A stretch of 64,000 nucleotides of DNA from Styela clava (GCF_964204865.1 NC_135251.1:7998001-8062000), one strand, 5' to 3'; positions 5,162 through 51,230 are shown, numbered from the stretch's first letter. Numbers and translations: made by a program. Notes: generated from the letters alone by a model not told the origin.

Positions 5162-6512
5162 ATGATGTCTTATCAAAATGTAATCGCAAAAATTAATAAT
5201 AACACTGAAAAGTGCACTGACTTCTATGACTTTGCTGAATCTCATGGATATTTTGAGAGAAAACTAAATGTGAACGTAACTCCTCAATTGGAGGAAATTG
5301 ATTTTTATGGAGGTGAAAGAATAATTGAATATGATTATGTACCAAAGTCATCTAAACGACCGAAGCATCTAGAATGGGAAAGAGAAAGCGGGATCAGAAA
5401 AGAGACTCAACTGGATGAATTGTTTGACAACTTCAAACATGGTCATGTCTGTTTTGTGGGGCCCCCTGGATCGGGAAAGACAACACTCATGAAAGCAACA
5501 TCCAGAGATGTCATGCATGGAAAATATTTTCATAGAATTATCAAGATGGTTTCATACATAGAATGCAAACAATTTATGAGAAACAGTAAAGTAACCGCAG
5601 CGGAACTAATATTTAACAATCTCACAAAAGAAGAAAGAAGTCAAGCAATAGACATTGCAAAAACTCACCCAGAGGAAGTTTTGTTTTTGCTCGATGCCTT
5701 GGATACTTTCCAATATACTGTTGATGGAGTTTATGAAGTCATCGGCTTAGATGAGCCTGCATATCCTGAAGTAATAATGTGGAATTTTCTCTCTGGAAAA
5801 TTATTTCCTGGCTGTCGCATTATATCGTCCAGTCGTGAACATTCCATCAGAAATTTTTGGGGAGAAATTCGACCAAACAAGGTCATTGCACTTGCTGGAT
5901 TAACAATGAAGTCAATCAAAGAAATCATTTCTGGATATGAAGGAGATGAAGAGGCCGAGAAAATAATGGAATTTCTCAAGATTGAAGCTCCATTACTCTT
6001 GTTTCTGTGCACTACACCAGTGATGCTTGTTTACACATTGATAGCATTGAAATTCAAATCTGACTTCAAACCAAACACCATGAGTGGTATTATGATTGTG
6101 GTCATGCAAAGCATCTTACGATCACCCCACACTCACCAAGAGATTACTATGGAAGTGTTGGGCAAATTAAAAGATCTATCATACATTGGGACAATAGAAC
6201 GCCGAGTTCTATTTACAGAAGATGATTTTCGTCAAGTTCATCTAAAACCAGAAGAAGCAACCGATCTTGCAATCCTGGCTCCTGGAGGAATATACCGTAA
6301 AGTTTTTCAAGGAATCCACCTTCTTTACTTTCAACATCAAACTTTTCAAGAAATGCTCACATCATTCTATATTCTTGGACTGGATTTAAAAACGTTCAGG
6401 GAGTTTGTGGATGAACATCTTCATACGGGTTACTTTGTTTTCGTCAGAAGAATGATCTGTGGATTTTTATTAAATACCAGAGTTTATAAAGCAGCAGGAA
6501 TTTTACTTGAAG
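5162..6512 (+). CDS. NLR exon 1: NACHT NTPase with helical and winged-helix domains
   Basis: Walker A GPPGSGKT, Walker B VLFLLDALD, sensor-1 IISSSR, LCTTP (GxP-type) motif and WHD motif YFQHQTFQEML. Donor GAAG/GTATTG at 6513. Confidence 0.93.
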
Positions 6513-9500
6513 GTATTGTGATGTTTATTGTTTAACTTGGATTAAAATTCAAGCTGGTGCCATTTTTTTTATTCAAATCCGAGATTAGTTAGATATTGTC
6601 ACTTCAATAGGTATTGTTAAGTCACTTCAAAGTTTGATATATTACATAAGAGACCTTGTTCATTGTTTATCATCTACTTTGAAATAGTTTGAATTTTTTC
6701 AGATGTGAATATTGGTTTGTTTGAATTAATAACTAAACAGTACAATTGCTTAGCAGTTAAAGTATTAAACTTTTTAAGTGTATTGGCATTGTAGGTTGCT
6801 CATTTCAAGAAACAGTAATCTTATATGTAGCTTAACAGCATGAGTTTGTACAGAGCATTGTTCGGAGCCACATTTATTAATGCTGTAATTCTTGGCAATA
6901 GGGGCAAAAGTTTAGATGTTGCTATTATGTTCTATTGCAAAACAAAAAGTAGCCAAGTCTTATTATGACACATCAAGCATTATTATTGCTCATTTTACAC
7001 TGGATTTGAACTAAAGCTTTAAGCTAGGGGGGAATCTGAAGTGCAGTGACAAATTATTATTACCCAATACATTGATAGACAATGGCTAACTAGATTAAAC
7101 CTTCCAATCACTAGTTTAAAAAAGATGAAAGTTGATGTTATTTATATGTCAACATTACTGAATGGTAACTCATTATTCACTCATACGCAGGTATCATCAG
7201 TATAAATATATTTTTATATTCCCACAGAAATTACGGATCTTGAAGAAAAACGAGATATTTTCAAGAAAAGTCTGCAATCACAACTCAAAAAAATATCAGG
7301 CGGATCAGATCTTCTGGAAGTTTTCACTGCAATGAACGAAGCCAAGGATGGAATGAGTGACATTGTCAAATCATCTCTTAATGAAATTAGCATGACTGGT
7401 CATCCTCTCTCCATCAGCGATATTCATGTCATTGGATCAGTAGTTTCTTACTGCACATCACTAACATTGGATTTCACTAGATGTGATCTCAAGTCAGCCT
7501 CACTTCAGACTCTCGCATCTGGATTAAAAGGATCAAATGCGAAGGTAGAATTTCTAATATTAAATTCTCAAAAAAAAATTCATGTTTATGTTTTTACCTT
7601 AAATAAGGCTTTAGACTAGTAGCGTATATTTTGAGAGTTACTACAATATAGTTGAATTTCACCATATATTAATTATATGTTGAATTCTATATCAAAATAT
7701 TTTGGTTTGAAAGTGTTTAATGAATTGTCACACACAGAAAGTTGTGGTGGACCTGGTTTTAAACCTGAAATCTGTGGTCCGTGGTACAAACGCAATTAAT
7801 ATAGGTATATTTCTTATTTGGTAAATGCTTACTGACTACATGGTATGTGCAAAACAACATGGAGAAGATTTTTTAGCATTAATTTCTTTATGTTGTTTTA
7901 TTGTGTCTTGTCTTTGAACAAGACTCCAGGCACTGATCTTTAGCGAACTATGATTTACCGACGGCTATCGCTAACTGGTAGAAACGATAAATGTAAAAAA
8001 AAAATGTCCTTGTCTCTTTGCGTCATATTTTCCAATTCCTAATTTTGCATAAAGCATGCCAACACCGTTTTTGTGAATTTAGAAACGTCGAACCAGATAA
8101 GTAGGATAGGTAAATAATGTATTTTATAGAAATTTCTCGCGATATTGGGAAGAAATATATATTATTTTGACCACGTAGAAATGCTTTTATTGCCGATTTA
8201 TTCATGTGCTAGTATCAGTGTTTTAACCCCAAGCTGAGTTACGTAAATACTCAACACTGAGTATTCAAGAGATTGCCAATTTGCAGAGCTTTTAATTATC
8301 ATTTTATATGAAAGTAACACCGACACGATCTAAAATTAAAGACATGAAAATGTCAACCATCCGCTTCACAAATATCGCATCCCGGGGTCAGTAATGTTAA
8401 TATTGTCCGCTTAGAATTGGGACCGTAATTTACAAACTGCGGTTCAAATCCTACACAGAAGATAAAAATGAGAATAAAATTAATTTGTGTAGTGAATGCA
8501 CTCCTTAATAGTTGTCTCTAACATATTCGCCGATGTGAACTAACAATTCTGTCCGACATATAAAAACCAAACTACGATATCGGCCGTTGCGTGAGAATTA
8601 ATATTTATATAAAAAAGTGATTTAATATAATTTAACAACATTAATTGGAATATCGGCCGCTGAAAAGATCGCAGTGATCAAAACTTTACTGCAGCTTTCG
8701 ATTATGAATAAATTATGAAATAAAAATCGCCGCATTGTTACGGAGTTTTCAGTCTTCAAGTAGAATCCGAAAAAACAAATACTTATTGTCACGGTGATTG
8801 TTTCGGTGGCCGTCATCCAAATTAATGTTTAAAATGACAATACTCATTATTCGGTGTTGGTTGAAAATATTCGAATATCTCTAGTAAAAAAATACGATTT
8901 TACCTGTCACTAATCACGGCGCATGTAAATAATCATTGAATGGCAATAAAAAATCAACTTAATTAACAATAAATTTCAAGTAATTGTTTCACATTTAATG
9001 CATTTGATCGGCGCTACATGCGAGCATGTTGTTTGTAAATATAAGCCATGATGACTCTTCTGCAGGGGTGGGTAACATACCGCCCTCGGGCCGCGTCATG
9101 CCCGCAACGAGATTTTGACCAGCGCGCTGACTGTTTTCAACCACACTCTGTAATGTGGTCCGACGCATCATTCATGAAAGTTGCCTATCACTCTACTCTC
9201 ACCGCACTGTCAGTGCAAGATGGTGAAATAAACAATTGCCCTAGTGAACAAACAATTGCGTTAGCACACTTGTTAAACAAACAATATAAGGTCAAAGCAG
9301 AGAGCGTTGTAAACATTCCCCACTACTGTTATTGGTTATATTTAGATTCTAAATATAAATAGATTTTAGATTAGGATTTTTTTAGATTTAGATTTTTTAT
9401 ATTAAGTTTAATTAACCATGGAATACCCCAAGAAACGTGAAGTTGACACAGAGAGGGGTCGAGCATGTAACAAAGATTGGATACCGAAGTATTTTGAAAT

Positions 9501-12500
9501 AGGACTTGCAAACTCACTAAAAAACACCTTAAGTCAAAGAGAGGCGGGTTACACGTAACTGTGGAATTTGCTGTGAACGATCATGCATTTCAGTTTATTA
9601 AATGCATTTTTACGTCGTCGTGAATAGCACTTTTGGTGTAATGTTTTAATTTCACCATAACCCCCTCTTGGGAAAATCCTGGCTATATCATTCAAATATA
9701 ACCAACTATATATTACACTTCCTATTAATATCAGATTTGCTATACTTGTTATATGATCATTTCGTTCAACCAGTATTAGGTTTGCTTAATATGTGTTCAT
9801 GGTTTAAACAATTTACATTCCTTTACCCTCTGGAATGTTTCATTGGAGTCCCGCTCCATCAAAAAGGGGTCTGTCCATGCTTAATTTGTTGATGATTTTA
9901 CCATTTTAATTTAATTTTAAAATATTTTTTCGTTCTTTGTCCAAGGTTTAAAATTTTGCCATTCTAATTGAATATTGAGTGGCATTCCATTTTCCACAAT
10001 CGGCCCAACAAGATTTTAAAACAGTTTAAATATGATCTTAAATTGTTCTTTCATTATAGATCATGAAGTTGTGGCTGAATAAAAACACAAACATGGGAGT
10101 TGAAAGTTTAACATCAGTTGGACAAATACTTTCCAATCAATCCTGTGTTGAAGAGTTGGGCCTTGGCAACTGTAACTTGTCATCAGATCAACTACAAGCT
10201 TTCAAATCCTCGATAGGCAATAGAACAACGGTGAGTTACAATGGTCAATCCATAGTGAACTTTTCTTGAATTTATTGTATAGCACAGTCTATGGGTCACC
10301 TGAAAATCTTTTTGGGTCGCTTGTTTTAGAACCAGAAATTATTTCCAGTAAATTTTATTGTTTTTTTCATATTTGGTATTGTAATGTTTCTCAATAGTAA
10401 TTTTACATGTGGAAGGTATCACAGCGTTAAAACTTACTAGCAGCTATAAATAGTAAATGGCAGCAGCCAATAAATAGTAAGTAAAAATAATTGTTTTATT
10501 TTAATCATTTAAATCTGTGGCCATAAAAGCACTACATGCAGTTTAGTGTGTGAGAATATCCTTGGATCGCTTGGTTTTTCAAAATTTATTTTTTTTTAAA
10601 AAATTTAGTCACTTGAAAAAAAAAGATTGGGAGCCACTAGTATAGCAATCCCTGTAATTTACAGTTACCTCTGTCATGCAAAATGCGGAGTCAAATAAAA
10701 AATTATTTCAGCTGATTTGGAGTCAAGTCAATTAACTCTAAATTAATTTTTTCATTTATTTGATGATTTCGGTAAGTAGGGAGATAACATCTCATAACTG
10801 GAATATAATTGAACTTTTAAAGAATAATTTTTGGGGAAAAAGACTAAACTTAGGAATTCGGTGTAGATTTTGGGGGTGCTAAAGTTACAGGCACTTGTGT
10901 TATGGTTTTTATTATTTATTCAATAGTGTAGTGTTTTACTTTCTGCTGAGTACAAACAACAATATCCTTGATGGTTGTCTCATATAATCTCTGGTGGGCA
11001 ATGTTGGTTGGTTAGCTGCAAGGGTTATACTCTTGAATATTTGTCATGCATGAAACATCACACAATTGATCATAAGCATAAAAATAGGGTACTTTGAAAT
11101 CTATCAACCTAAAGTAATAATACCTTGAAATAGGCCATGTTAATATCAAAGTAAATATTTCAATATTTTTGTTCTGTTTTATGAGTATTAATAAATTCAT
11201 AATTGCTCCATCATTCATTTTCATGCAGTTGTTAACATGGGATTCAACTTTTGTGAATTTACATATTTTAATTCTGATATGTCTAGTTTTTTCAGATTTT
11301 GTTTTCAAATTCCACGGTATTGGCTATGGAATATTAATGGTATATTTTTCATCAAAAACTACTTTCAGTTTGAAAATGTTCATAATTTTTTATTTCTCAC
11401 TCATTAAAGAATCATTATGGATTTCCTGATTCATCAATTATTCTTGTCTCTTTATAGCTCATGAAGTTGTACCTATATGGAAACACAAACATGGGTGTTG
11501 AAGGTTTATTATCAGTTGGACAAATACTTTCCAGTCAATCCTGTGTTGAAGAGTTGGGCCTTGCCCATTGTAACTTGTCATCGGATCAACTACAAGCTTT
11601 CAAATCTTCAATTGGAAATAAAACAAAGGTGAGTTACAATGATCAATTTATAGTAAACTTTTCTTGAATTTATTGTACAGTACATTCTAAGGGTCACCTG
11701 AAATTCTTTTTTTTTTTTATTTATTTTTTGCAACACAAATATTTTTTAATAAAGTTCACTGTATTTTATCTTGGTATAGTAGTGCTGCTCAATAGTTATT
11801 TTATATGTGGAAGGTATCATAGCGTTAAAACTTAGCAGCAGCCATTTTGTTAAAATAAAACCATGCCACAATTTCAAAAAATTGCTTTTGGCAAACAAGT
11901 GAAACTTTCTTCACTAGTGCAACTTTGAATTAATTTCTGTTGAAATAAATAGTATGTAAAAATGATTGTTTTATTTTAGTCATTTATCTTTGTGGCCATT
12001 AAAAGCACTTAATGCCGTTTAGTATATAAGCATATAATTGGATCGCGGGGTTTTACAAAATTAATTTTTCTGAAATATTTGGTCGCTTGTGGAGAGGGTG
12101 GGAGCCACTACCACAGCAAATCATGTAATTTATAGTTACAACTGCCATACAAAATGTGGAGTTATATAAAAACTATTTGAGCTGATCCAGAGTCGAGTCT
12201 AAATTTTTCATTTATTTAAAGATTTGGGTAAATAGTAAGGTAACATCTCACTACTGAAATATAATTGAAGTTTTGAAGAATAATTTCATGGAAAAATAAT
12301 TAGCAATTCGGTGTAGGTAGAGAGTTAAAACTACAGGATATTTTTATGAATGCTAATTCCGATATTCCAATAGTGTGATATTCGAAAACTTTATTCGGTT
12401 TGGCCATCCCTGGTCACTCTCATGCAACATTTTTATTTTTATACTGACGTAGTGTTCTACCTTCTGCTGAAAACAAACAACAATTTTCTTGATAGTTGTC

Positions 12501-15500
12501 TAATATAATCTCTGGTGGGCAATGTTGGTTGGTTAGCTGCCAAGTTCATACTCAACTATAATAACAGACACAGATTTGAATAATTTTTTCGTCATGCATT
12601 AAACATCGCACAATTAAACAAAAGCATAAAATAGGGTACTCCGAGTAATAAACTTGAAATAGCCTGTGCTGATAACAAAGTAAATATTTTAATATTTTGT
12701 TCCGTCTTGTGCATATTAATGATGCCGTAATGGCTCAATTGGTCTTGTGCAGTTGTTGACATTTGTTAACAAGGGATTCGGCTATTCTGCATTTACAGAT
12801 TTTATTTCTGATTATCTATTTTGTAGTTGGATATTGTTTTAACGAGACATCTGTAGAATATTACTAGTATATTTTGCATAAAAAACTACTTTTACTTTAA
12901 AAATGCTCATAATTTTTCATTTCTCACTCAGTGAAAAACCATTTATATCTTTCGAGGTTTATCAATAACTCTTGTCTTTTTATAGCTCATTAATTTGTGG
13001 CTGAGTGGAAACACAAACATGGGAGTTGAAGCTTTATCATCAGTTGGACGAATACTTTTCAATCAATCCTGTGTTGAAGCCTTGTACCTTGCCAACTGTA
13101 ACTTGTCATCAGATCAACTACAAGCTCTCAAATCATCGTTGGGCAGCACAGAGGTATAACACAACAATAATTTTGTTTAAAAGGTCGGAGGAAATTGGAT
13201 TGCACTGTGAAATTATGGAAAACTTCTGAAATTTTAAATTTATCTTTTATTACACCTTGTGTTCGATGATTTGAACTTGTGCAATCTGGAATGGAAACAC
13301 AGTCAAATCTAATGCTTCAGATGCTAGGTCATCACACTCATGCATGTAAATTTATGATTCTCATGCTATCCTATCATCTTCAAAAGCTGATGTCTGTTTC
13401 AAGTGTTTATAAAAATAGAGAAAAAATAGATTAGAATTTGGAACAGAAGGTAATGATCAATAATAATAATTCTAAAAGGTACTTATTTCTAACATTGAGG
13501 GGTTGGAAGACAAAAGCATTCCTGTTTTTGAAATTGTAATTTACCTATGTTGCTCTGAGTTTGAAATAATTTTACAATTTTGTTTATTGATTCGAATTGC
13601 TATCACGATATGAAACACAATCGATTTGACCACAAAAAATGTCACTTGACTAAAACATTGAAATTTTTTATATATTGATTCTCACTCGATAATAACTGCC
13701 AACCTCTGGCACCAGGCTATATTTGAAGTTACAAAAGCGTGTTAGCTTTCAAAATGTGGATTTTGACCAAGTTTCACCCAATTAAAAATGAATTTCACTA
13801 TGTTGTGTATTAATGCCAATTGCTACCACTTCATTAAATGCAATGTTTTTGACCTACAACCCCAAGGCCATCCAGAGTTGGGTCAGCATTTTATGACGTA
13901 TTACTGTTGTCAACTTTATTACCGGTATATAAAAACATTATAAGATGCAAAAGAATCACTTTCATAATTTGTATGAACTACCGTATTAGAATAATTAGAT
14001 GGTTACCAGTCTGAGCCACTCAAATTTCTGAATAGAAAAAACTTGAAGCACTATAATTATGCTTGATCAGGAATTAAAAATTTTTTAAAAATATTTTCAA
14101 TGAAACTTTTTCACAGATATAGCTGAGTTTTTGGTTCAATTGACATCGGCTTCATCACAATTTCACCCAATGTGATTTTTGTATTAGATGGAAAAAACAA
14201 AACCCGACTTTCAAATATTCTGTATTTTAAACTATATTGATGGATAACAATTTTTCTTCATCAGTGTTCGCTATTAGTGCACTTTTTTGCGAAAACTGCG
14301 AGACATTTTCTCTATTTTTTTTTTTACTTTCAAGGCACCTTCACACTCATAATTTTCTTAAAGTGAACACTGCTTTTAATACTGTATTGAAATTATGAAT
14401 ATCATATTATATAGCGGCCTACAATAAAGTAGGATTTTCCAGAGTCAACATTATTATTTGAAACTTAAGTCTCAAATGGCAAATATATTCAGATTTTTTT
14501 GTCTTATAGTGAGCAAAGGCAGGTTAAAACTTATTTTTACTTTTGAAATTTATACCCGCAAGTTTGACTGTTTTGATATCATAACAATTTATCAATATTT
14601 TTGTTCTGTTTTATTGATTTTATAATTGTGCAAGTATTCGTTCTTATGCAGTTATTAGCATGTGATTCAACTATTCTGAATTTACAGATTTTAATTTTTA
14701 TATGTCTAGTTTTGTAGTTCAGATTTTGTTTTCAAATTCAACGGTATTGTTCGTGGCAGTGGTTCCCGACCATTATGGCTTGTGGCCCCCTTCCAGCGGC
14801 TCGTAGAACTCATGGCTATCCTGTTCATCATTCCAAAAAACTTGGATGTGTTCGAGTGTATTATGTATTTTCGACCTTCTATGGAATGCAAAAACAGACC
14901 ACAGGCTAGAAAGTCAAACTTTGTACTATTGGAAAGAGAAACTTGCAGGCTTTTTCTTTGGCAGAAACCCAAATTTGGCAATGTTGCTTCCTTGTCAAAT
15001 CTAACTCGCTAGGCAGCCAAGGCACTGAATGTAAACGTCTTTTACATGGAAAAGATTTTTTTGCACAGTGGATTTGGAGTTTGGATGAACGTAATGATTT
15101 ATTGTTTATCACATATGAGCAACGCAGGCATTGTGCACATTGCTTCAGGGCCCCCGTTAAGAACCACTGGTCTATGGAATATTCATGGTTTATTTTGCAT
15201 CAAAATTACTTTCAGTTTGAGAATGTTCATAATTTTTTTCTTTCTAATCCCTCAATGCACCATATCTAAATTTCTGGGTTCATCAATTATTCTTCTCTCT
15301 TCATAGATTATGAAGTTGTACCTGAGTGGAAACACAAACATGGGTGTTGAGGGTTTATTATCAGTTGGACAAATACTTTCCAATCAATCCTGTGTTGAAG
15401 AGTTGAGCCTTGACAACTGTAACCTGTCATCAGATCAACTACAGGCTTTCAAATCATCCTTGGGCATCACAAAGGTATATCACAATAATAATCACATGAT

Positions 15501-18500
15501 TAACGTATTTTAAAAAGGTTGGAAGAAAATTTGATTTTGATTTTGTAACAGATTAAGTTTCACACTTTCATAGCCAAAATTGGATTACATGGTGAAATTA
15601 ATGAAAAACCTCTACAATTTTAAATTTATCTTCTTTAATAAATTTTCAGGCCCTCTCATTTATTTGAAAATTTCTTTGAAATATATTATAACCAATTCTT
15701 ATGACCAATCGGTTCTGTTGAGTCTTGTCCGATGATTGTGTGAAATACCTAAAATTGTCCTATATTGTACGTAAATTACATTAATTTTTTTTTTCGATAA
15801 ACTCCCAAGTTTATTCAATTTTGAAAACTTTTTATTACATCTTAACATCTTAAGTAAAATTTGGAACAGAAGGTAAACAGATTTTAAAGAATAAACGATA
15901 AGTGCTAATAAATCTAAAATGATATTTATTTCCAACAGTACAGGTTTTATTTGTTCAATAACCACATTTATTTAATTTTCACGTGGTCAAATGTGGGATG
16001 TCCACTTGTATAAGCTTAAGTCACAGCTTATTACATTTTCAGTCACCTAAATGCTATTAACACCATAAATCATTTGACATTATCTACAATGAAAAGAGTA
16101 ATTCTGATATCATAAATGGTCGCACTTTTCACTTGTTTGTTAGTTAATCCCAATGAGACATATTAGGCCTTTGAGACAATAATTATTCATGCCTTTTCAC
16201 TGCAAACCTTGTGCAAATTTAACAATTAGTCTTTTGTACAGAATTTATAAATAACCTTTCAAATCAACCCTTGCCTTCTGGAACTCGGCAAGTTTTTTGA
16301 GGTCACCAGAGTCTGATAACCAAATTATAATTTTGACTATGTTGCTCTTACTTTTGTTCAATGATTACGAATGCTAACGATTTGTGAAATACAATTGATT
16401 TGACCACAAGAAAAGTCAAACAACTAAAACATTGAATTTTGATAACTGTTGTTCCTCATTTGATGAAAACGCACAATTTCTGACACCAGGCTCTGTTTCA
16501 ATGTTACAATGCTTTTCTGTGTAATAAGAATAATATGGGTTTGGCAAAACTAGGACGAATATGACTTTTATGTATTTTATCCATGCCATATTGATTTTTG
16601 TATTTGTTTATTTCAACAGATTGATCAGTTGTATCTGGGTGAAGATCGTATTGCAAACAATGAAGATATTGTTGCAGTTGCAAATCTGCTTCCTAATGTT
16701 ACAGAGAGTTTGTGGTTGGGAAGATGGAAAATAGCTGATGAAGATAAAGAAATATTACAGAATCAATTGGATGAAATTGGATCGGAGGTTTGAAATTCTT
16801 TTTGGGATATACAAAATATAAAATATGGGTCAGACATAAATCAATAATTTGTGTAGAAACTGAAAGTCTAAATTGTTCACGCTGAACTGAACACTTTAAA
16901 GTCCACCAAAGTATATGTTATTTCCATTCGTGTCATTTCAATTCTTTAAAGCAATTACCAAAATATTATATCATTGTGGTCAATTTGATTGTGTTGTACA
17001 TTAATGTTTAATGTTTGCTTTATTGGACACGTTTATTGGCCATAACGATCGTTTCAAAATTTTGTTGTTATTGTTATTTGTCTCCGTCTCCATTTTTAAA
17101 AAATCGCTTTTCTCTTCGAATACTGGACCAATTGCTTTGATATTTTCAGTGGTTAAAGATAAAATTTTCCTCCAGAAGGGTATTACTTTTTTTTCGCTAT
17201 GACGTCATCAAAATTATTGCCACTGGGTGGCGCTACGTGTCCATATATTTGAGCATAGCTCTCTTGTTTTAATTATGTTCATTTGTGTTTTGATAAAAAG
17301 AACAATTTCATAGATTCATTTGTGTTTCTGTTTCGTCAAGCAAAGTCTAAATTTGAAATGAATTGTATTTACTAATTTTTTGCAGTAATTATCATTTTAT
17401 TGAATTACCAAGCGTGGACTGTCAATTTAGTGAGTTATCAAAGAAAGCAAATTTTAAAAGTTTCTCAATAAATGTTAATGAGTAAATGACTGGAATTCCA
17501 GCATTGTCGTTGAAACCCTTCAGTGCTAATTTTGTATACAATTTATTCATTATAGAAACTAGAAATTTGCTTGGATAGATTCACAAAACTCAAAAGTCGA
17601 AGGATATCAGCAGCTACAATCAAAGTTTTTTCTAAACAACATCCAACCACAACTTCAAAAACAGAATTTGGTAAGTTATGAATATTTTTTCAAATTGAAT
17701 GGTTCTATGGCACCAATATCGCTGCTTGATAACAAACATGGGTTTTACTTTGCGTCTCCCTTCACCGTGGGATGCCATTTTTATGTTTTTTTTTCCTAGT
17801 TCTCATTCCAATCAAGTGAATTTACATTTTAGTGAAAAATAAACCACTGGCTCACATGATCACTACATCATGAATTTCTGCCCAATTGTTTAATATTTCC
17901 ATAGTTATCATTATTATATTATTCTTGTCATCAAGTAATTTTCATCGTTCTCGGAATGCTTATTGAATATACTTGCTACTGAAGCTGGCATATTATTCAA
18001 CGCTGTCTTGCAACATGTTAAATTTTGTCATTCTCTTAACAGATTTGGTATTTTTATCGTGTTATTGTCTATTGTACATATTGCGGTATCAAACAAAATT
18101 TTTGCTGTGATTAAATATACCGTAAATCTAGAATATGCAAAATTAATTTTATTAAAGATATAAAATAATTGCTTCCAAGTAGTTACACTTGGCTGTCGGA
18201 GCATAGAGCTTATAGTTACAGAATCTTAAATTTTTCTGATAATCGCTCACTACTCTTTGTATTTGGTTTTTGCTTGAAAAAGCCACTCACAGCTGTTTTA
18301 GATAACCCGGCTTTGCTGCTACTCACTACAATTTTATGTTTAATTTTGTTTTTGAATGAAATGGCCAGAAATAATATTGAGGTCACAGCTTTTATTTAAA
18401 ATAAAATATCTATTTTTAGCTTTGCCTAAAATTGAAAATGTTTCATCTCAAAGAAGTGGATCCGACATTCTTTTGACTTGGAATGAAGTATCTGACGGCA

Positions 18501-21500
18501 ACGTACTATACAACGTAGAAATCTTCTGTGATGATGTGAAACTTGAAGGGACTCACACTACAGAGGTTCCTCAGTATAGAATGGAGTCACCTACACTTGG
18601 TAAAAAATATATTTTCCAAGTGTGGGCCAAAGATGAATTGGGAAACTCTAGCATCAAAACACAGTCAAAGAATGTTATCAAATGTAAGTTATGGCCATTA
18701 ATCATTAGGTAATGTAGCAACCTTATAATTCAAATAGTTACTTATTGATATCGATCAGTAAGTATGTTCATAGGTATTTGTCTGTCTGTCTGTTAGATCA
18801 TTTTCGTATGTTACACGATATCTCACGAAAACGAGGTTGAATCTTCTCCATTTTGCATGTGCATTTATCATATCTCGGACCAGAAGCCTATTGATTTTTG
18901 ATGAATCATGTCAAATAATCAGCGAGTTATTAGTTAATTAGTGATGGGACATGCAGTGTTGCAATTGAGTCAGAGCGAAGGATACAAGCCGCTAGATCAA
19001 TAAGTCGGCGGTCTCCGTGCGCTATCTCGTTTGTCCGTTAGACACTTTCGTATGTTACGCGATATCTCTCAAAAGGGATGTTGAATCTAGTCCAAATTTT
19101 GCATGTGCATTCATCATATCTCGGAACAATAGCATATTGATTTTGGATGGATTATGTCAGATAATTAGCGCGGTAATAATTAATTAGTGATGGGACACGT
19201 GGTGTTGCTATTGAATCAGAGCGAAACAATCAAAATCGCAGTTTCTGTTTTGGCGGATCCCTTAACCTTCGTCGCTGCGAACGATTGTGTGCGTAACATT
19301 GCCCTGTCTGCAATTGCGAGAATAATCATTGTGAAATCGTACTCCGTCAAAATTGTCAAGAAAAATATTGTACATGAGGAAGATCGATAAGTCGGCGGTC
19401 TCCAATCGCTATCTAGTTTATTGTTTTAATAAATAGTCAGTGAGTGTATCTGCATGGTGGCGGCCCATCATCATTATTAGAAAAATATTAGGCATTTTAT
19501 TTTTTAGACGACTTATCGGCATAAAATCAGTGGTTCAAAATGGCCTCACATTTTTTCGCAATGAAAATGGTTTACATCCATTGACCAAGGCACAGTATTT
19601 TTATTCTATCATTCTTGGTGGTTCAAGAATTGGTTACTGACATTCAACATTACTATGTCAAACTGTGATGTGAAATAATTATGCAGAAACTACTACTTTA
19701 CTGGCTCCTAAACACCACCCCTTTACCTTAATTGCAATACATGAAGGTATATTGTGCTCATATTGTGTATATTGGTCATACAATCAATCTAGATTTATGA
19801 GGCCAAATCTTTTCTTTATTCCTAAACATGGAAGTTGCTCAATACCAGATTGAACTGGGAAAAAACATAATTGAAAATTCTAAAACAATACACAAGGAAA
19901 TTACTCAACTCATGGTAACAAATATTTTGTCGCATTTCTAGTTGCTGAGCCTGCTTTGTCTAAGTACTCATTTCCTACTTTACATAACTTTGGAACAACC
20001 TGTTAAAATTCATTTTTTGTTGCATTATAAAACAAATCTATTTTTTAGTGGTGAACGTTGAAGTTGCCGGCGGATCCATGAGACTGAACGAATGCAAAGT
20101 CACGTTTCCTGGTGGAACTTTCAACAAACAAACAAAGGTCTGGATGTCGGTTGGAATTGACAATTCACTGTGCCCAGAAGGATACATTGGTATCACACCA
20201 GTTTTCGATATCAGTGCAGATTCCGAATTCCTCAAAGATGCGATCGTGCAAATCCAGTCATGGTGTGTCGGTCTAGAGAAAGACAAAATTGACATATTAC
20301 ATTTCTCAAGTAAAACTGATTGGAATATTATTAAACCTCGCCGAATCACTGGGGATAACAGCATAGAATTCCGATGCAGAAAGTTCAGCCCAGTTATGGC
20401 CTTCATCAGGTGGTTGCTGTTTGGAACAGTGGAGCTTCTTATGGAACACCGTCTTTATATTTTAAACAAAAACAAATTTCATTTTGCATTTTTCACATGT
20501 GGTGAGACTGTTCAGAACACTGTCAGACATTATTATAAAGACCTGGGTGCACAACTTGCTCCTTTTCATCTTCCTCAGATTCTCTTACAAATTGGAGACA
20601 GAGTTCGCATGAAACTCCAAATTGACCGCGGACCAGAAAATTTGCATTTCGATTTTCCTGATGGCCATACTTTCCTGGTAGACAAACAATTCCTAAGAAA
20701 GCAAAGAAATGAATACACGGTTCAGCTTTTCCCTGTCCGCGACCAATATCCCCAAAGTAACATCAGATACAAGATGGTTAAGGAAGGCAATGAACCGGAA
20801 ATTTGCAATCGTGATTTTGATTTCCCAGTGGAACGAATAGGTGAGTAATTCAGGGCTCTTGCTCTCGCCTCATGCAGTTTTACTATGTTGTTCAAGTTGT
20901 CATTCGACCACTCAACATGATGCAGGTATTCATTGTTAAAACGAGGCTTCCTGCCATAAAAAAAACTTTCTAGTTTGGCTTATTTTGTTTAGTTTCTAAT
21001 TCTGGAAACTTGTGTTGCCCAATCAACATTACTTTCGAAGTTGAAATAAAAATGAATATGATTCTAATGTGTATCTCATACTGTTTAGATATGCCAGGAC
21101 AACAAACTATCAATTTCTATGGAGATGTTCGTGTTGCAGGGAACATGAATATGAATGGCGACCGCCAACAAGCTTTACAAGATGTGAGTAAATGCAATAA
21201 ATACGTAAATAAATTATTTCTGAGAAACAGCTGGCAAAATTTCAATTTTAAACAAATCTAGTTCTATTCCTTCGTTATAATTGTTTGTGTTTTTCTTTAA
21301 AGCTATGTGTATGAAGTTATAATATTATTTTGAATAAGTTGTAATATTACCAAATTGTCCATTTTTTACACTTTCTCCTGTTATATGCACAAAATGATAA
21401 TATCACCATGAAAATAATCTAACAAAAATAAATTTATCAAATATAATATAAATAAATATATATAATATGAATATAAGCAGTGGTGGGATTCAGCCGGTTT

Positions 21501-21922
21501 GCACCGGTTGTTTAGAACCATCTCACAGAATTTTATAAGATCAGCGTACCGGTTAGCATTAATCAGTTTATTTGCTAAAAAATATGACTTTTTGAAACAG
21601 AACCGGCTGAAAAATATGACTTTTGTGATGGAACCGACCGACAAAAAATTTGAATCCCACCACTGAATATAAGATAATATACAACTCAATCTCATACTAT
21701 AAATATTCAATCATTTAATTTGACTAACAAAATATTATGCTGAAAGTGACAACTGTTTTTTATATTAAGGAACAAATCGAACAGAGAGAAGCAGAGCAGC
21801 AAAGACAGGCAGATGAAAACAGGGTCCGTGTTCCAGGATTGGCTCCCCAAATTCTATTCTTGTTCCTAGCTGTTTTTCTCCACTTTTTGTTGAGGTGGCT
21901 CACACCCGAAATAACCTTATAA
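5162..21922 (+). CDS. NLR-family receptor, NACHT-LRR-FN3-FIIND(ZU5-UPA)-RHIM-like-TM, ~1310 aa, 12 coding exons (5162-6512, 7228-7544, 10060-10230, 11458-11628, 12986-13153, 15307-15474, 16620-16787, 17556-17670, 18420-18683, 20049-20840, 21089-21183, 21770-21922)
   Basis: Every exon is flanked by AG/GT. Phases chain without a stop (1,0,0,0,0,0,0,1,1,1,0). Summed length is 3933 nt, or 1310 aa plus stop. An in-frame TGA at 5144-5146 lies upstream of ATG 5162. Joining all exons into one transcript is inferred from phase compatibility, not from RNA data. Confidence 0.8.
7228..7544 (+). CDS. NLR exon 2: HD2-LRR transition and first LRR
   Basis: Acceptor cccacag, phase 1 start. Encodes ...LSISDIHVIGSVVSYCTSLTLDFTRCDLKSASLQTLASGLK. 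Donor AAG/GTAGAA. Confidence 0.85.
10060..10230 (+). CDS. NLR LRR exon A (171 nt, two RI-like LRRs, phase 0-0)
   Basis: IMKLWLNKNTNMGVESLTSVGQILSNQSCVEELGLGNCNLSSDQLQAFKSSIGNRTT, flanked by ttatag and gtgagt. Confidence 0.9.
11458..11628 (+). CDS. NLR LRR exon B (171 nt, phase 0-0)
   Basis: LMKLYLYGNTNMGVEGLLSVGQILSSQSCVEELGLAHCNLSSDQLQAFKSSIGNKTK, flanked by ttatag and gtgagt. Confidence 0.9.
12986..13153 (+). CDS. NLR LRR exon C (168 nt, phase 0-0; the ORF track shows the wrong frame here)
   Basis: LINLWLSGNTNMGVEALSSVGRILFNQSCVEALYLANCNLSSDQLQALKSSLGSTE, flanked by ttatag and gtataa. Confidence 0.88.
14757..15169. mobile_element. hAT (Charlie-like) element inserted in the intron upstream of LRR exon D
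   Basis: Ends CAGTGGTTCCCGACC / GTTAAGAACCACTG. Absent from the paralogous intron (empty site ggtattggctatggaat near 11316). Degenerate TSD. Confidence 0.8.
15307..15474 (+). CDS. NLR LRR exon D (168 nt, phase 0-0)
   Basis: IMKLYLSGNTNMGVEGLLSVGQILSNQSCVEELSLDNCNLSSDQLQAFKSSLGITK, flanked by tcatag and gtatat. Confidence 0.9.
16620..16787 (+). CDS. NLR terminal/capping LRR exon (168 nt, phase 0-0)
   Basis: IDQLYLGEDRIANNEDIVAVANLLPNVTESLWLGRWKIADEDKEILQNQLDEIGSE, flanked by tcaacag and gtttga. Not in the ORF track. Confidence 0.8.
17556..17670 (+). CDS. NLR linker exon (basic, Thr/Ser-rich)
   Basis: KLEICLDRFTKLKSRRISAATIKVFSKQHPTTTSKTEF, flanked by ttatag and G/gtaagt. Phase 0 to 1 bridges the LRR and FN3 exons. 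Confidence 0.7.
18420..18683 (+). CDS. NLR fibronectin type III domain exon (phase 1-1)
   Basis: P..V.....SDILLTW......LYNVE......YRMESPTLGKKYIFQVWA....GNS shows the FN3 W, Y and L..GxxYxFxVxA pattern. Confidence 0.85.
18736..19420 (+). mobile_element. Two head-to-tail Helentron/DINE-1-like copies in the FN3-FIIND intron
   Basis: Same family as 262-575. Units are roughly 18736-19030 and 19031-19420, each ending taagtcggcggtctc... Confidence 0.7.
20049..20840 (+). CDS. NLR FIIND exon (ZU5 followed by UPA-like domain; phase 1-1)
   Basis: ZU5 signature GGSMRL..CKVTFPGG...ITPVFDI....F.K.A.VQI, then ILHF...KPRRI...KFSP, then about 150 aa of beta-rich sequence. Confidence 0.8.
21089..21183 (+). 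CDS. NLR mini-exon encoding a G/N/Q-rich RHIM/amyloid-like motif
   Basis: DMPGQQTINFYGDVRVAGNMNMNGDRQQALQD, flanked by tttag and gtgagt, phase 1 to 0. The exon is well supported; the motif call is inference. Confidence 0.7.
21478..21665. mobile_element. hAT MITE in the last NLR intron
   Basis: TIRs CAGTGGTGGGATTCA / TGAATCCCACCACTG with a perfect 8-bp TSD AATATAAG. Confidence 0.93.
21770..21922 (+). CDS. NLR last exon: short charged helix plus C-terminal hydrophobic (tail-anchor-like) segment
   Basis: EQIEQREAEQQRQADENRVRVPGLAPQILFLFLAVFLHFLLRWLTPEITL*, after acceptor tattaag. Confidence 0.75.
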   Translation, partial: EQIEQREAEQQRQADENRVRVPGLAPQILFLFLAVFLHFLLRWLTPEITL

Positions 21923-25836: not shown

Positions 25837-27393
25837 CAGTGGCGGCGCGTCAATAGGGCCAACCGGGGCAATGCCCCGGTTGTTTTTTCGGTATAATAAA
25901 AAATATTCGAAAAATACCTCAATATCGGTTGCACAGACTGTCTACACTAGCCATATTCTCCCGACATGGTTCATTTTTCGCTCGCAAAGCCTTCGCCGAA
26001 CGTCGTCGCGGCGACGCCGATTCTGCCCCGGTTGCTCATTGTATATCGTATTCTCTTTTTTATCTTCCACTCGCCGCGTTTGTCTCGTTTGTTTTCTGTT
26101 TCTTTTACTAAATCATCGGGGCCGATCGGGGCTAGCCCCGAAATTATGACGACATAATGCCGACGTTTCTTACAACAACGTGTTGACATATTCACGCATT
26201 CCTTCACGTTCGTTGGTTGCTTGAAGAGTTGATAGTTTCCTCGCCTTCGTTTTTCTCGCTTTTTTCTCCACAATATTCTATCACGTGGATGTATTATAAG
26301 GCTAATGGATGGAGCGTCTGTGCAGTCGTGTATTTCAGACTTCTGCGATGCTGTATCTCGTATCCGGGAAACAATAAAATACGACGACACATGGAGTGCT
26401 TCTTTACGTCGCTGGCAAACAACGCAGCGTTTGATTTTGTCTGCATAGGAATGCTGTGACATTCTGGTGAATCAAATAGGCGATCGTCTGCGCACTGAAC
26501 ACCTTGCCGCGTTCTCTTTGATGAACTCCAAAAATTTTTCAAAATTTGCACGTCAATTTCCCATCCATTTGTTGGCTACTGTCTCCAAATTTTACCCCAT
26601 GATGAACGTGGGTAAATTGGAAAATGAATTGCGATGTATATACACCAATCAAACTTTTTTGAACATCACATCAACTTGCGCGCTCTATGGGTTCCTCATA
26701 GATAACACTCTAGTAACTACCTTTGCGGCGTCTGCAAAATTTCTGGACATCATCTTGACGACGCCTATTTCTTCCGCCGACGCAGAGCGAACATTCAGCA
26801 CGCTGAAGCGTATTAAAACGTATCTCAGAAACACAATGAAGCAAGATAGATTAAATTCCTTGGCTGTTTTATCCATTCACAGAGACGTTATTTCTGAGAT
26901 GCATGACTTTAATCAGCGCGTTATTGAGCATTTTGCTTCCAAGAAACCGCGGCGTGTTGCATATATGTTCAAGCAGTAGAAGTCTAGCAGCATATATATA
27001 TATGAGTGAGCGACGCATGTCCTTATCTTTGCATTAAATTTCCTTTCTTCATAGTAACGTTTTAAACCTTATTTTAGGTTTTGTCTGCTTTCCCGAAGTT
27101 TCTGTTAATATGTCATTGTATTTATCTGGGTAAATATTGCCTTTCCTTTTGAAAGAGGTTTCAAAATAAACTATGTCCATATTTATTAATCCCTTGACTT
27201 GGACCGGTTTTAAAGACACTTTCTTATCGTTAAAAATTGTCTCTTTTGCCGATTGGTTGTTACCGATGGAATGGTTTTTATACTCATAAAATGATGGGAG
27301 AACTTACAGCGTTCATCCTGTCCCCGTAGATGGGGGTGACTTGGTCCCGCAGTAGCTTGCCCCGGTTGTCAAAATGACCACGCGCCGCCACTG
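25837..27393 (+). mobile_element. Internally deleted hAT DNA transposon (ZMYM1-like transposase type)
   Basis: TIRs CAGTGGCGGCGCGT / ACGCGCCGCCACTG, subterminal GCCCCGG repeats, imperfect flanking repeat ggc(c)aacgag. Confidence 0.9.
26440..26979 (+). pseudogene. hAT transposase C-terminal dimerisation domain remnant
   Basis: TPISSADAERTFSTLKRIKTYLRNTMKQDRLNSLAVLSIH. An in-frame TAG lies just upstream of ECCDILVNQ and no N-terminal transposase is present. Confidence 0.88.
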
Positions 27394-34532: not shown

Positions 34533-35413
34533 GAATCCTCTAAAATTACTGAACTCGTTATGCAGGGAAAAATTTAATTAAACTAGAAAATTGAATGAAA
34601 TAAGGAGACGATCGAAGGTATTCCCATTTAAATACACATTCTGACATTCCATTTCACAATGATTTATGCCTGATAACAAGTTAAGTTCAAGATTTAAAAT
34701 ATATTGCAAGTATTTGTCTTGTTATTCCATTCAATTTTGTAATAGTATAAGTTTATTTTGACTCCATAATCAGCATAACTGTCAATAAAATGATTGATAG
34801 AAACAAATAAATGCAAACTGATTGTGAAATCAGGGGTGCAAACAATACCTTAGGTGAGGTTTAAAACGTACAGAATATAAATTAGAAGGTATTGCTAAGG
34901 AGTGGTACATGTTCACTCACTTAATAACAAATAAATAGAAAATTGATTACTGGATTATGAAATCAGGACAACAAACCTCAGATAAGGTTTTAAACATACA
35001 TAACATAGAATGGAGAAAAACTGATCGTTTATTGTTGTTTCGTTTTATACCAGAGTGACCGAAATAAAATTGATTGATTGAACTCACTCACCCAAAATAA
35101 TTATAACATTTCACACACAGAGATATTATGAAGTAGGAACGCATCTTCGCAGAACATGATCCACTGGCACAAAAGATTAGAAGAAGGATAAGTAGTTGTC
35201 CTGACAGAAATTCATATGAGTTAGTATGCAACAAATGAATAGTAAACTTCACTCTGCTACAACATCCTTGCATTTCACATTGCAGTTATGAAAATGTTAT
35301 ATTATGTCTGTTTAAATATTGGTATATATATTGATATTACGATTGTTGTAAAACCCATCGAATGAGGAAACTATTATCTTTTCATTACCCAGATTGTAAT
35401 TTAATCTAACAGT

Positions 35414-37033
35414 ATGGCTGATGAAGAAAATAAAGAAATTCCCGCTGCAGAGGAAGCCCCACCTGCACCCGCAGAGGAATCTGCTGAAAATGTTGAGCCT
35501 GCTGCTACAGATGAACCTGCAGCAGTCACTGAAGAAGCAGACACTCCACCAGCAGAAGGAGGGGAGGTAGAAGTCAAAGAAGAAAGGGAAATACCACAAG
35601 AACAGGAGGGCGAGAAAGTTGATACTCCAGAGGAAGGGGAGGAAAATCCAGCAGAAGTTGCTGAAGCCGCTGCTGAACAGGCTCCTGAAGGTACAGAGGA
35701 GGCTGCAGGGGATGCTGCACCTCAGGAGGAACACAAACAAGAAGGGGTAGAAGGTGAAGTAGAAAAGCCAGAAACTGAAGTACCACCTGAAGGTGAAGAA
35801 CCAGTAACAGAAACAAAACCTGAAGAGGAAACAGAAAAAACGGAAACACCCTTGCCTCAAAACGAGGATTTCGATGCTGGGGAAAAAGACGAAGCGACGC
35901 TTGATGTTACCGGTGAAGTTTTATCAAGAGAAGGAAGCCCACAACCCCCTTTGGAAGGACCTGAAGAAATTAGGCCAGACTCTCCGAAACGAGAGTCCGA
36001 GGAGCGAGGCGTCATCTTTGAAGAAGAAGAAGAGGAGGAAGAAATCCCGAGATTTAACAGAGAAGAACTGATCGAAAGATACAATAAAGCTTTACAAGAA
36101 CGAGAAATGTTGAATCAGAAAAATCACGCTCTACAAAACAAACTAGCGGAATATTTTAAACGTAAAAAGACAGAAGACAACCGACAAGAAGTTGATCGCA
36201 ATGTTACAGACCAAGAACAAAGATACATGAAATACATCAGTAATTTAGAAGAGCTAAGAAACCAAGAGACAGCAGAAAGAGAGTCGTACGATGAACAAAT
36301 AGAGGAAATGAAAGAACGTAAAGCTGTGAAACAGAAACTAGTCGAACAAGAATGGAATGAATACTCAAATTTCAAACGTTCTGTTGCTCTCGCTTCTGTA
36401 AACAGCCGAAGCGGTCGACCTTTGACCCAGAAAGAATTTGAAATTTACGAGATTAATGAGGTCAAAAAAGAAGCCGAAGTTTCTCAAGTTCGACTTGAGA
36501 ATATAAAGTTGCGGAATCGATTACGAAAACGAGAATTGCAGTTGAAGCAAAAAGAAGAACTAGCTGAAGGATTACATCTCATCGATTTTGAGCAGCTGAA
36601 AATCGAGAACCAAACTTACAATGAAAAAATTGAAGAGCGTAATGAGGAGCTTATGAAACTCAGAAAGAAGATAACAAGTACGGTACAAGTTTTGACACAT
36701 TTGAAAGAAAAACTACAATTTGTACAAGGAGAAAACCAGGTATCCAAACAAGAGCTAGCACATATTGAAGCAGAAGTTGCGGGGAAGCGTGACATACTCT
36801 CTCGTACAAAACAAGCGAGGGATGCATTACGTCATGATAATTCAAAATTACAACAAAAATGTGGTCTGCTTGGAAATCGACTTCTTCTCCGAGACTATGA
36901 AGAAGGCACAGACGAAATTGCCGATCTAAGTCACCGCCTTGATCAACTAAAGAGAACTCATGCAGAACTAACGCTTAGTATTAGCGGTGTTAAAAAGAAG
37001 ATCGAACAAGCGAGAGCACAGTCGCAAAATTAA
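35414..37033 (+). CDS. CCDC96: Coiled-coil domain-containing protein 96 (CFAP184), intronless CDS
   Basis: E/A/P-rich low-complexity N-terminus. Conserved C-terminal LAEYFKRKK, EQRY and EELAEGLHLIDFEQLKIENQTYNEKIEERNEELMKLRKK (DUF4201-type). Confidence 0.93.
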   Translation: MADEENKEIPAAEEAPPAPAEESAENVEPAATDEPAAVTEEADTPPAEGGEVEVKEEREIPQEQEGEKVDTPEEGEENPAEVAEAAAEQAPEGTEEAAGDAAPQEEHKQEGVEGEVEKPETEVPPEGEEPVTETKPEEETEKTETPLPQNEDFDAGEKDEATLDVTGEVLSREGSPQPPLEGPEEIRPDSPKRESEERGVIFEEEEEEEEIPRFNREELIERYNKALQEREMLNQKNHALQNKLAEYFKRKKTEDNRQEVDRNVTDQEQRYMKYISNLEELRNQETAERESYDEQIEEMKERKAVKQKLVEQEWNEYSNFKRSVALASVNSRSGRPLTQKEFEIYEINEVKKEAEVSQVRLENIKLRNRLRKRELQLKQKEELAEGLHLIDFEQLKIENQTYNEKIEERNEELMKLRKKITSTVQVLTHLKEKLQFVQGENQVSKQELAHIEAEVAGKRDILSRTKQARDALRHDNSKLQQKCGLLGNRLLLRDYEEGTDEIADLSHRLDQLKRTHAELTLSISGVKKKIEQARAQSQN

Positions 37034-45272: not shown

Positions 45273-46239
45273 TATTAAGATTATAACATCAGTATAATGA
45301 ATTTATATTCTGTAAAATAAATTTGAGAATTCGAAAAATGAGTTATTCTGTAAATATGAGAATAATGTCCAGAGCATACTCGGATATTGAGATTGGCAAA
45401 TAGAACTTACCGTATGAAGTATGCTGCATTCCAATGACTAATATTAGTACAGCGCAGTTCTCCGATTCCAAGAATAGCCCCCACAATAAAAGACATCAAT
45501 TATAAAAGGGATTGCAAACCCCTCCTTCACAAGACAGTCTGGATATCCAGATTGACGCGTCTGCCGTCATGCCAGAAGCCCTTCTTTTAGGACAAATTGA
45601 GTGTTTGTTTTTTTGAACTAAATGTCAGGACATCTTGAAATCAGAAAACTGTGCTCTACTGAATATAAACTTAAAGGTGCCAGTAGAGTACAACCTCGAG
45701 GCTAACAAGATAAATAGGTTACGGTACGGTACCGAACCATTGGCTGAATAGAATATTTTGTTATTTATTGTGACTGTAAGCCCAAATTTTGGGGAATTCA
45801 GGAATTAGGCTACCGGTACCGGTATACCGTAATAAATGAAGTGATTGACCTGGCTTGTATCATGTCTGCACGGGGCTGCTCATCAGCACAGCTACACACA
45901 AAGAATCTATTTAAAAAAATCATAAATTAGGTACGAAACACGAGGAATGGAGTCAGAAACAAACAAAAGATACCGTACCGGTACCGCGAATGTCCTGAAT
46001 GACTGATATTCCAGGCAGTTGTACACAATCCGGAAACGCCATATTCTGGCTTCAGTATTCGTACTGGTAATCTAATTCACCCCTACAGACACATACCCTG
46101 CCTCGAGAATGAAAAATTAGATCGAATTACCGGCTTCCGATAAACAATAAACTGTCTTACCAATGTTTACAAACACCGTTTCCAGGTTCTGACGCGAACA
46201 CCAGCTACCGGTACCGCTTCAATTAATCACATATTTGTT

Positions 46240-50228: not shown

Positions 50229-51230
50229 TTACTTGTACTTTTTCTCGCAATCCCTCACCTTGTATTTCCTATTATTTTTTTTTGTAAGTAGTTTTGTCCA
50301 AATTTTGATTGCCCTATAAGCAATAATTTCGGGTATCCAACTTGCTATCCAAGCATGAAATGCATGGATGTAGTATCCGTTCGACAACCTGGATTTTCCT
50401 ACAGTTTTTAGAGAATGGCTTGCAAAATTTTCGGCATTCTCTACAATCTTCAAGTTATATCCTATCATTGGTTGTATACTTTGAACAATAATTTCATTCT
50501 TTTCGCACTCATAGCTCAAAGCTTGAGAAAAATGGTCGCCAAATCTCATTGATGTGGAATATAAGGCGCAAAAGGGTAAGACAAATTGTGAGGCAGCTGG
50601 TGAAATGTTTATAACAAGACCGGTTCCTCTCTTTATCATATTTGGTAACACCAGTTGATTGACATTCAACGGAAAAAAACAGTTGCAAGATATAAAATCC
50701 AAACTTCTTTTCGGCCGTTTTTTCCGATCTTTGGTATTTCCAAAGCCGTCGATTGACCGTTCGAATTCTTGCTCTAATCCGACATTGTTGACCACAATAC
50801 CAATTTCTAAATCTCGAATGGAATTTCTGATTGCGTCATAGGCTGATGACGTCATCGTTTCTCCGTCCATTACTTCACCTGTTTTTGTAAAGTCGACGAC
50901 AACATATCGCGCTTCGACACGGCATCCGCTTTCTATTTCCTTCGCAAGCTTTTGTAGCTTGTCTCGATGTTGACCAACCAACACTATACTCATTCCCATA
51001 TGAGCCAACTCCTTTGCAAAAGCTTTGCCGAGGCAATCCGTAGCATTTGTTACAAGAGCCCATCTTCCGAACCTGCGATAGTCCACCGCTGCACTAGTAA
51101 AATATATCACAAAATGCGTGTACAGATTAAAAACCGTTCTCGCGCTGACATAAATCAAGGCTAAAACCCCTGCGAAATATAACGCACTACTGGTTTCCAC
51201 CAAAATATTTATGACCGAACAGAGACCCAT
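50229..51230 (-). CDS. HSD17B12/HSDL1-like short-chain dehydrogenase (very-long-chain 3-oxoacyl-CoA reductase family), probably catalytically impaired
   Basis: N-terminal TM, G.WALVT.ATD..GKAFA.ELA..G, LEIGIVVNNVG, LVLPNM..RG.G.VINIS, FSQAL.YE and C-terminal KKxx. TGxxxGxG and YxxxK are degenerate. Confidence 0.85.
   Translation of the reverse strand: MGLCSVINILVETSSALYFAGVLALIYVSARTVFNLYTHFVIYFTSAAVDYRRFGRWALVTNATDCLGKAFAKELAHMGMSIVLVGQHRDKLQKLAKEIESGCRVEARYVVVDFTKTGEVMDGETMTSSAYDAIRNSIRDLEIGIVVNNVGLEQEFERSIDGFGNTKDRKKRPKRSLDFISCNCFFPLNVNQLVLPNMIKRGTGLVINISPAASQFVLPFCALYSTSMRFGDHFSQALSYECEKNEIIVQSIQPMIGYNLKIVENAENFASHSLKTVGKSRLSNGYYIHAFHAWIASWIPEIIAYRAIKIWTKLLTKKNNRKYKVRDCEKKYK

Follow-up and report, generated by a model that had tools for sequence, protein, structure and literature searches.

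The following described systems come closest to the locus analysed here. NLRP1 and CARD8 combine a FIIND-type ZU5-UPA module with a CARD and autoproteolysis, which in CARD8 uses His270 and Ser297 according to a portion of PMC3210808, and ZU5-UPA modules followed by a death domain are present in PIDD1, UNC5 and ankyrins. NLRs of fungi and bacteria, for their part, signal through short amyloid motifs (HET-s/NWD2, PP, BASS1-10), fungal NLRs bearing either such motifs or all-in-one fusions, as stated in excerpts of PMC12881547. Whether the RHIM is the only signalling amyloid of animals is posed as an open question in a section of Daskalov and Saupe (PMC7889193). The RHIM core tetrad is given in part of PMC13506858 as (V/I)-Q-(V/I/L/C)-G and the cryptic RHIM core as VxxG, and a G-phi-Q-phi-G signature common to RHIM, PP and BASS3 is reported in an excerpt of a preprint (bioRxiv 10.1101/2020.01.06.895854). 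Passages of Kajava et al. (PMC4262963) place amphioxus RHIMs at death-fold positions, one of them in a NACHT protein, and describe tunicates as apparently devoid of RHIMs. A system combining ZU5-UPA with a motif of the kind described below is not described in the main texts of the open-access literature searched, nor in the portions of PMC11760013, PMC8195603 and PMC8662601 that were covered.

The window, that is, the whole 64,000-nt stretch of Styela clava DNA analysed, contains a gene whose 12 exons (Table 1), when joined, give an open frame of 1,310 amino acids with GT..AG at 11 of 11 introns. Its product reads NACHT-LRR-FN3-ZU5-UPA, followed by the motif, a charged spacer and a predicted transmembrane tail. 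The LRR label reflects the repeat pattern and the RefSeq name of paralogue P0002, and the short N-terminus of exon 1 gave no death-fold match in Pfam. The motif, D-MPGQQTINFYGDVRVAGNMNMNGDRQQALQD, is encoded by 95 nt running from phase 1 to phase 0 with a split Asp codon, between ...tttag upstream and gtgagt downstream (AG acceptor, GT donor); a prior reading of this DNA (hereafter the sequence-only reading) had given the motif an exon of its own, and both these bounds and the in-frame 12-exon gene agree with it. The motif exon does not form the C-terminus of the product, as the last exon comes after it; the 82 residues downstream of UPA consist of motif, spacer and a hydrophobic tail of 17-19 residues (about 21851-21901; mean hydropathy 2.2-2.3), with no C-terminal CARD. 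Splicing of the motif exon is suggested by its splice signals, its frame and the RefSeq/UniRef models of paralogues P0001, P0002, P0005, P0008 and P0010, themselves predictions, which include the exon. Among four sequencing runs guessed to be RNA, two contigs depart from the genome at donor 20840 and the matches listed contain no joint into the motif exon, over whose bin the depth was 4.6, 3.2, 1.3 and 0, hence low in three of the four. None of the runs recorded as RNA contains the stretch, a result that counts neither way.

Table 1. Features of the NACHT-LRR-ZU5-UPA-motif gene in the Styela clava window
Feature	Position	Strand	Basis and remarks
Exon 1: short N-terminus and NACHT NTPase	5162..6512	+	PF05729, E 1.6e-20; in frame; covered by contigs of runs guessed to be RNA
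Exon 2: helical region 3' of NACHT	7228..7544	+	AG/GT, in frame; homologous to RefSeq paralogues
Four repeated LRR exons	10060-10230, 11458-11628, 12986-13153, 15307-15474	+	Sequence; GT..AG joint 11626>12984, also seen in contigs of runs guessed to be RNA
Last LRR/cap exon; linker exon	16620-16787; 17556-17670	+	AG/GT, in frame
FN3-like exon	18420..18683	+	Putative label (weak Tissue_fac match, E 0.086); GT..AG joint 18683>20049, present in two of the four runs guessed to be RNA
ZU5-UPA (FIIND-type) exon, 264 residues	20049..20840	+	AF2 model, structure matches
His codon; predicted autocleavage site F|S	20300-20302; 20384-20389	+	Inside the ZU5-UPA exon
Class A motif exon	21089..21183	+	Core INFYGDVRVAGNMNM at 21109-21153
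Last exon: charged spacer, predicted transmembrane tail anchor, stop	21770..21922	+	RefSeq model P0008 has a tail of this type

The AF2 model of the 264-residue ZU5-UPA exon (pLDDT 89.8) matched UNC5B best (Z 19.1), then CARD8 (Z 16.6), with ankyrins and NLRP1 also among the structure matches; a search of PDB sequences with the ZU5-UPA profile returned nothing, the likeness being visible by fold only. Residues 1-112 of the model aligned with NLRP1 1100-1212 and residues 114-256 with NLRP1 1214-1350, and from these registers F112|S113 corresponds to the NLRP1 cleavage position F1212|S1213. A His stands 29 residues upstream of the cleavage Ser, as against 27 in CARD8, an equivalence of spacing only, and this His and the FS pair are retained in 55 of the 57 loci parsed (of 60). 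By analogy, the sensor would be expected to cleave itself at F|S. Because its exon lies directly 3' of a FIIND-type ZU5-UPA exon, the motif occupies the NLRP1 CARD position, where the sequence-only reading had put it, and fold and cleavage register concur. The Styela gene thus shares with NLRP1/CARD8 the NACHT-LRR-ZU5-UPA order, F|S at the same position with an upstream His at similar spacing, a signalling slot directly 3' of UPA, and caspases as apparent effectors. It differs from them in having no PYD or CARD, with a short motif and a predicted transmembrane tail in the CARD's stead, an additional FN3-like domain, more than 60 close copies, and a ZU5-UPA nearer to the UNC5B fold, the comparison being one of fold and not of orthology. 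From the PIDD1/UNC5/ankyrin ZU5-UPA-DD module, which has the same fold and with which some tunicate relatives share a terminal death domain, it departs in that the motif replaces the death domain and in that the site of cleavage reads KF|S, its His lying distally, instead of HF|S.

The motif had initially been read as RHIM-like, and this part of the reading did not hold. The Gly-ending tetrads of the motif exon are NFYG, RVAG and NMNG; the RHIM tetrad is absent, and so is VxxG, no Val standing three residues upstream of any Gly, so that 'VRVAG' is no core of either kind. The RHIM profile PF12721 gave no match at E<=10 on the motif exon or on nine other motif peptides, and across the genome nothing exceeded the cut-off (best E 4.3; 10 candidates scored). 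No other Pfam family matched the motif peptides meaningfully, PDB searches with class A and class B profiles (the two motif classes defined below) returned chance matches only (E 0.11-6.5) and no RHIM structure, and ESM Atlas gave no usable match for the motif exon or a caspase N-terminus, which is uninformative. RHIM identity of the motif exon was accordingly rejected on the missing tetrad, the silent PF12721 and the lack of a RHIM structure in PDB. The motif nevertheless resembles RHIM and cRHIM, including the RHIM-NACHT of Branchiostoma, in its length of about 15-20 residues, its Asn/Gly/beta-branched composition, its unstructured context and, as described for RHIMs in passages of PMC4262963, its location where death-fold domains otherwise stand, while differing in the absence of the core tetrad and of a profile match. 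The class B sequence GANIG resembles G-phi-Q-phi-G, which leaves room for a remote kinship with RHIM, PP and BASS3. That the motifs are true but highly diverged RHIMs, homologous to those of RIPK1/3, amphioxus and insects and able to cross-seed with them, strikes us as very improbable: this resemblance (bioRxiv 2020.01.06.895854, in part), the homology of class A to class B, and the RHIM-NACHT proteins of amphioxus (passages of PMC4262963) speak for it, and the missing tetrad, the genome-wide best E of 4.3, the 10 motif peptides without a match and the PDB result speak against it. Separately, the relative P0044 (XP_077973547.1; NACHT-LRR-ZU5-UPA) ends in IQGNNVLIGDGTMNIN, the most RHIM-like tail encountered, yet has no Pfam RHIM match.

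Of 105 candidates scored in a genome search with the ZU5-UPA exon, 87 matched, 63 of these with at least 41% identity; we examined 56 of the 63 close loci together with 4 distant ones (24-26% identity). A homologous motif exon in the same phases was found 3' of ZU5-UPA in 51 of the 56 close loci and in 1 of the 4 distant ones. Lack of conservation in paralogues was part of what the sequence-only reading said would refute it, and this retention points the other way. The motifs fall into two classes: class A, of the NFYGD type (22 loci, 7 of which carry shorter subtypes), to which the window's motif belongs, and class B, PPP-[IV]-NFAGANIGN-[LV]-[HN]-L (29 loci). They are homologous to each other (hhalign prob 87.8, E 3.3e-6). 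The five close loci without a regular motif exon comprise (i) L052 and L055, where a caspase is fused directly to UPA and the motif is absent, (ii) L056, where a decayed class B motif runs into a caspase, (iii) L010, with the motif exon shifted further downstream, and (iv) L012, where a second module follows ZU5-UPA; LRR exons lie upstream in L055 and L056. Damaged motif copies, some with premature stops, occur in L019, L021, L022 and L029, and the distant L057/P0039, whose ZU5-UPA is only ~25% identical, still has a clear class A core.

On the ZU5-UPA tree (55 rows), well-supported branches force at least six class changes for B and at least seven for A, the bootstrap being not fully settled; from these forced changes we infer that a 3' cassette of motif plus tail has been exchanged repeatedly. 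The tail goes with the class: a scan of the next exon in 49 loci found hydrophobic tails in 16 of the 19 loci of class A and in none of the 24 of class B; no tail was obtained in six loci, two of them kinase-RNase genes. Pairwise dN/dS, in which pairs are not independent and values are rough, was 0.50 in the class A core against 0.83 in its flanks (nine exons of equal length, a set outside which the window's own shorter exon falls), and 0.20 and 0.35 in the class B cores against 0.48 in the flanks; the constraint suggested for the class A core is therefore mild. On contig C2 of the genome (G000), extra class B exons were also noted (e.g. L130-L133, L135, L136), 15-19 kb downstream of family genes and lacking a ZU5-UPA exon in the nearest 3.5 kb or so, which may be alternative last exons or remnants.

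A wider profile search with the ZU5-UPA family yielded 113 representatives; among 19 looked up (plus P0035), 11 were from S. clava, 1 from Ciona, 2 from Phallusia and 1 from Clavelina. Upstream of ZU5-UPA these relatives carry NACHT, BTB-Kelch, FN3, GBP or other domains. Downstream they carry death domains (P0052, PF00531; P0083, P0102 and P0133 have similar tails), caspases (P0012, P0117, P0134) or short stretches that are beta-rich and rich in Asn/Gly; tails beyond the close family were classified by eye, without statistics. The slot 3' of a single ZU5-UPA family is thus interchangeable between death domain, caspase and short beta-rich motif.

A search of caspases identified, on contig C1 (28.9-29.3 Mb), a clade without a death-fold prodomain whose N-termini (such as LNFVNSSIGQINL, VSIVGSTIGQINF and VNIAASKIKNINI; among the proteins are XP_077971471.1 and XP_039258481.2) are in register with class B VNFAGANIGNVNL. 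It comprises five genes with an N-terminal motif, three intact and two broken, which as paralogues represent about two to three lineages and not five independent cases; two are present as exact RefSeq proteins that start at the motif, the third as a database protein of near-identical sequence, and a 55%-identical homologue carries IQFLGNQIDVINV. The catalytic His-Gly and QxCRG are retained, and no fold was predicted with confidence for residues 1-72 (pLDDT about 30; the alignment was shallow). Using matrices and profiles built with our own settings, the class B position matrix placed the five caspase N-termini among the top 6 of 15,186 windows, drawn from 32 caspase ORFs and 4 window proteins, and local shuffles equalled their scores in 2-52 of 5,000. 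Among 81,159 windows, the reverse matrix, from caspase to sensor, placed 8 of 8 class B sensor motifs immediately behind the caspases (13.9-22.6 bits; next window 12.9), and hhalign joined class B to the caspase motif with prob 68.6 and E 4.6e-5. The caspase scores themselves are modest (9.5-16.2 bits, chance peaking at 15.3 bits in 672,902 six-frame windows), and HMMER was not significant from class B to caspases. Most sensors lie on C2, the genes being not adjacent.

We also considered the class B exon as a vestige of a captured caspase gene. In a quick tree (22 rows) the motif-caspases group as a clade of their own, separate from the caspases fused to ZU5, a result that speaks against a simple remnant of duplication, and this candidate is weakened further by the constrained class B cores. 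As for effectors carrying a matching motif, which the sequence-only reading had called for, they were found for the sister class B, in the caspase N-termini, and no free partner was found for class A in the searches described below. Two further sets of caspases were observed: L065 and L075 (C6, 18.83-18.84 Mb) are caspases with a death domain that also contain beta-rich repeats internally (INVVGKNAVGIQTNYY; INLKGKNATGIENNFY plus one more copy), which may represent a third class of motif, and L117/L122 and L090 (C1, 24.26-24.27 Mb) form a second caspase clade without a death fold, whose N-termini are beta-rich (CNINVNVHFYEG; VKLDITFNLMNNEV) but fit neither class A nor class B.

The sharing of a motif between class B sensors and caspases is consistent with more than one mode of contact. 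On balance, and with modest confidence, we favour a homotypic amyloid-type signalling tag which would relay sensor activation to effectors bearing the matching motif. A non-amyloid docking element, namely a strand-turn-strand that adds to a folded domain by beta-augmentation (its own ZU5/UPA, an adaptor or a caspase) through a shared receptor, seems unlikely to us. It would explain conservation and sharing with caspases without fibrils, and it fits the lack of any match to known amyloid motifs and the charged Asp and Arg within the class A core, which we count against the amyloid reading. It sits poorly, however, with a slot otherwise used by death domains and fused caspases, with the unstructured context on both sides and with an Asn/Gly/beta-branched composition like that of known signalling amyloids as given in part of PMC4262963. 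It is likewise at odds with the fate of the motif where a caspase is fused in cis, which coincides with its absence (L052, L055) or decay (L056). By analogy, this alternation of two-component and all-in-one forms is the pattern of fungal amyloid signalling.

The class A motif of the window scored 0.7 bits against the caspase motif (hhalign prob 0.4), that is, no match. Searches for a partner of this class showed that (i) the 32 caspase ORFs contain no free N-terminal partner, (ii) genome searches with two class A peptides return family exons only, (iii) the non-family matches of two class A DNA patterns are at or below control level for both patterns, those inspected (20 for the first, all 12 for the second) being non-coding or unrelated, and (iv) no class A motif is present in about 8 kb upstream of the 20 KEN-RNase loci inspected out of 42. 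Class A is present, on the other hand, in P0005 and P0013, proteins of the order death-domain-like-FN3-ZU5-UPA-motif-kinase-KEN RNase, one with a hydrophobic C-terminus. A weak match (E 0.008 among 155 proteins) was obtained in P0095, which joins a death-domain-like part to ZU5-UPA and bears two copies of the motif as well as a hydrophobic tail. The best candidate partners of class A would therefore be other class A proteins, above all the kinase-KEN RNase proteins; we hold this to be possible but doubtful, and it is the weakest step of the scheme. Alternatively, class B would be a real tag and class A a partnerless variant, either tethered to a membrane as a decoy or regulator or serving as a drifting spacer that separates UPA from the tail anchor. 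This we judge quite unlikely, for although a free partner was not found with peptides, DNA patterns, caspases or the 20 of 42 KEN-RNase loci, constraint is weaker (dN/dS 0.50), some copies have premature stops and hydrophobic tails are confined to this class in the counts above, the core is kept next to the ~25% identical ZU5-UPA of L057/P0039, shows stronger constraint than the flanks around it and persists in front of kinase-RNase effector domains. Tandem class A-like motifs were also seen in ZU5-UPA proteins P0095/P0156, P0078 and P0109; P0095 carries the further motif INITNIQGTIGQVLLG and overall resembles a membrane adaptor. The 42 PF06479 matches in the genome amount to a large kinase-KEN RNase expansion, several of them adjoining NLR/caspase clusters on C1 and C6.

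Taking the motif as an amyloid-type tag, the following sequence of events may be proposed. After self-cleavage at F|S, loss of the NACHT-LRR half would free a UPA-motif-tail fragment and UPA clustering would gather the motifs, as in NLRP1/CARD8. By analogy with fungal and bacterial amyloid motifs and with RHIM, the clustered motifs would stack as cross-beta and template the partner motif, and the partner enzyme would be switched on by proximity. In the cytosol, class B would bring in the motif-caspases, and class A would act on a membrane. Put together, the sea squirt may possess an inflammasome system resembling that of NLRP1, with a code of non-RHIM amyloid motifs standing in for the CARD. 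Sensors of class B would polymerise caspases with the motif as sole prodomain, those of class A would assemble on a membrane with kinase-RNase effectors, and recombination would swap the motif-plus-tail cassette and so rewire outputs. We put forward this whole scheme tentatively, as plausible and somewhat short of probable. In the sequence-only reading, position, paralogue conservation and, by way of class B, the expectation of effectors with a matching motif have stood and RHIM identity has not, and the transmembrane tail and the two swappable classes had been overlooked.

By analogy, the motif likely works as NLR amyloid signalling motifs do while lying outside the described fungal and bacterial families and outside RHIM; judged from sequence, it is likely a new candidate family of non-RHIM amyloid-type signalling motifs in a chordate. 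It is like the fungal and bacterial systems in that a short motif takes the place of a folded signalling domain on an NLR and is common to the NLR and a separate effector (here for class B), and in that all-in-one fusions coexist with several non-identical motif classes. Unlike theirs, the Styela motif is C-terminal, behind FIIND, and not N-terminal to NACHT; the effector is a true caspase with an N-terminal motif or a kinase-RNase and not HeLo/Bell; and the genes do not form adjacent pairs, no sequence match to those systems having been found in the Pfam and PDB searches. If the reading is true, the motifs would be the first family of signalling amyloids in animals other than the RHIM, and the caspases the first to be recruited by an amyloid. 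The system would unite the FIIND autoproteolysis of NLRP1/CARD8 with the amyloid-motif signalling of fungal and bacterial NLRs, and would show caspases recruited without a death-fold domain as well as a tail-anchored FIIND sensor. In the sister group of vertebrates, the locus offers concrete pairs of sensor and effector motifs.

Downstream of the gene, the window contains a hAT transposase C-terminal remnant (26449-26979, +; PF05699), with related copies in L180 and L186, and three further reading frames: a long single ORF for a CCDC96/CCDC113-type coiled-coil protein (35405-37033, +), an apparently intronless CEP104 ORF that holds the N, TOG and ZnF domains together (42552-45302, -), and a long single ORF for a short-chain dehydrogenase (50229-51281, -).
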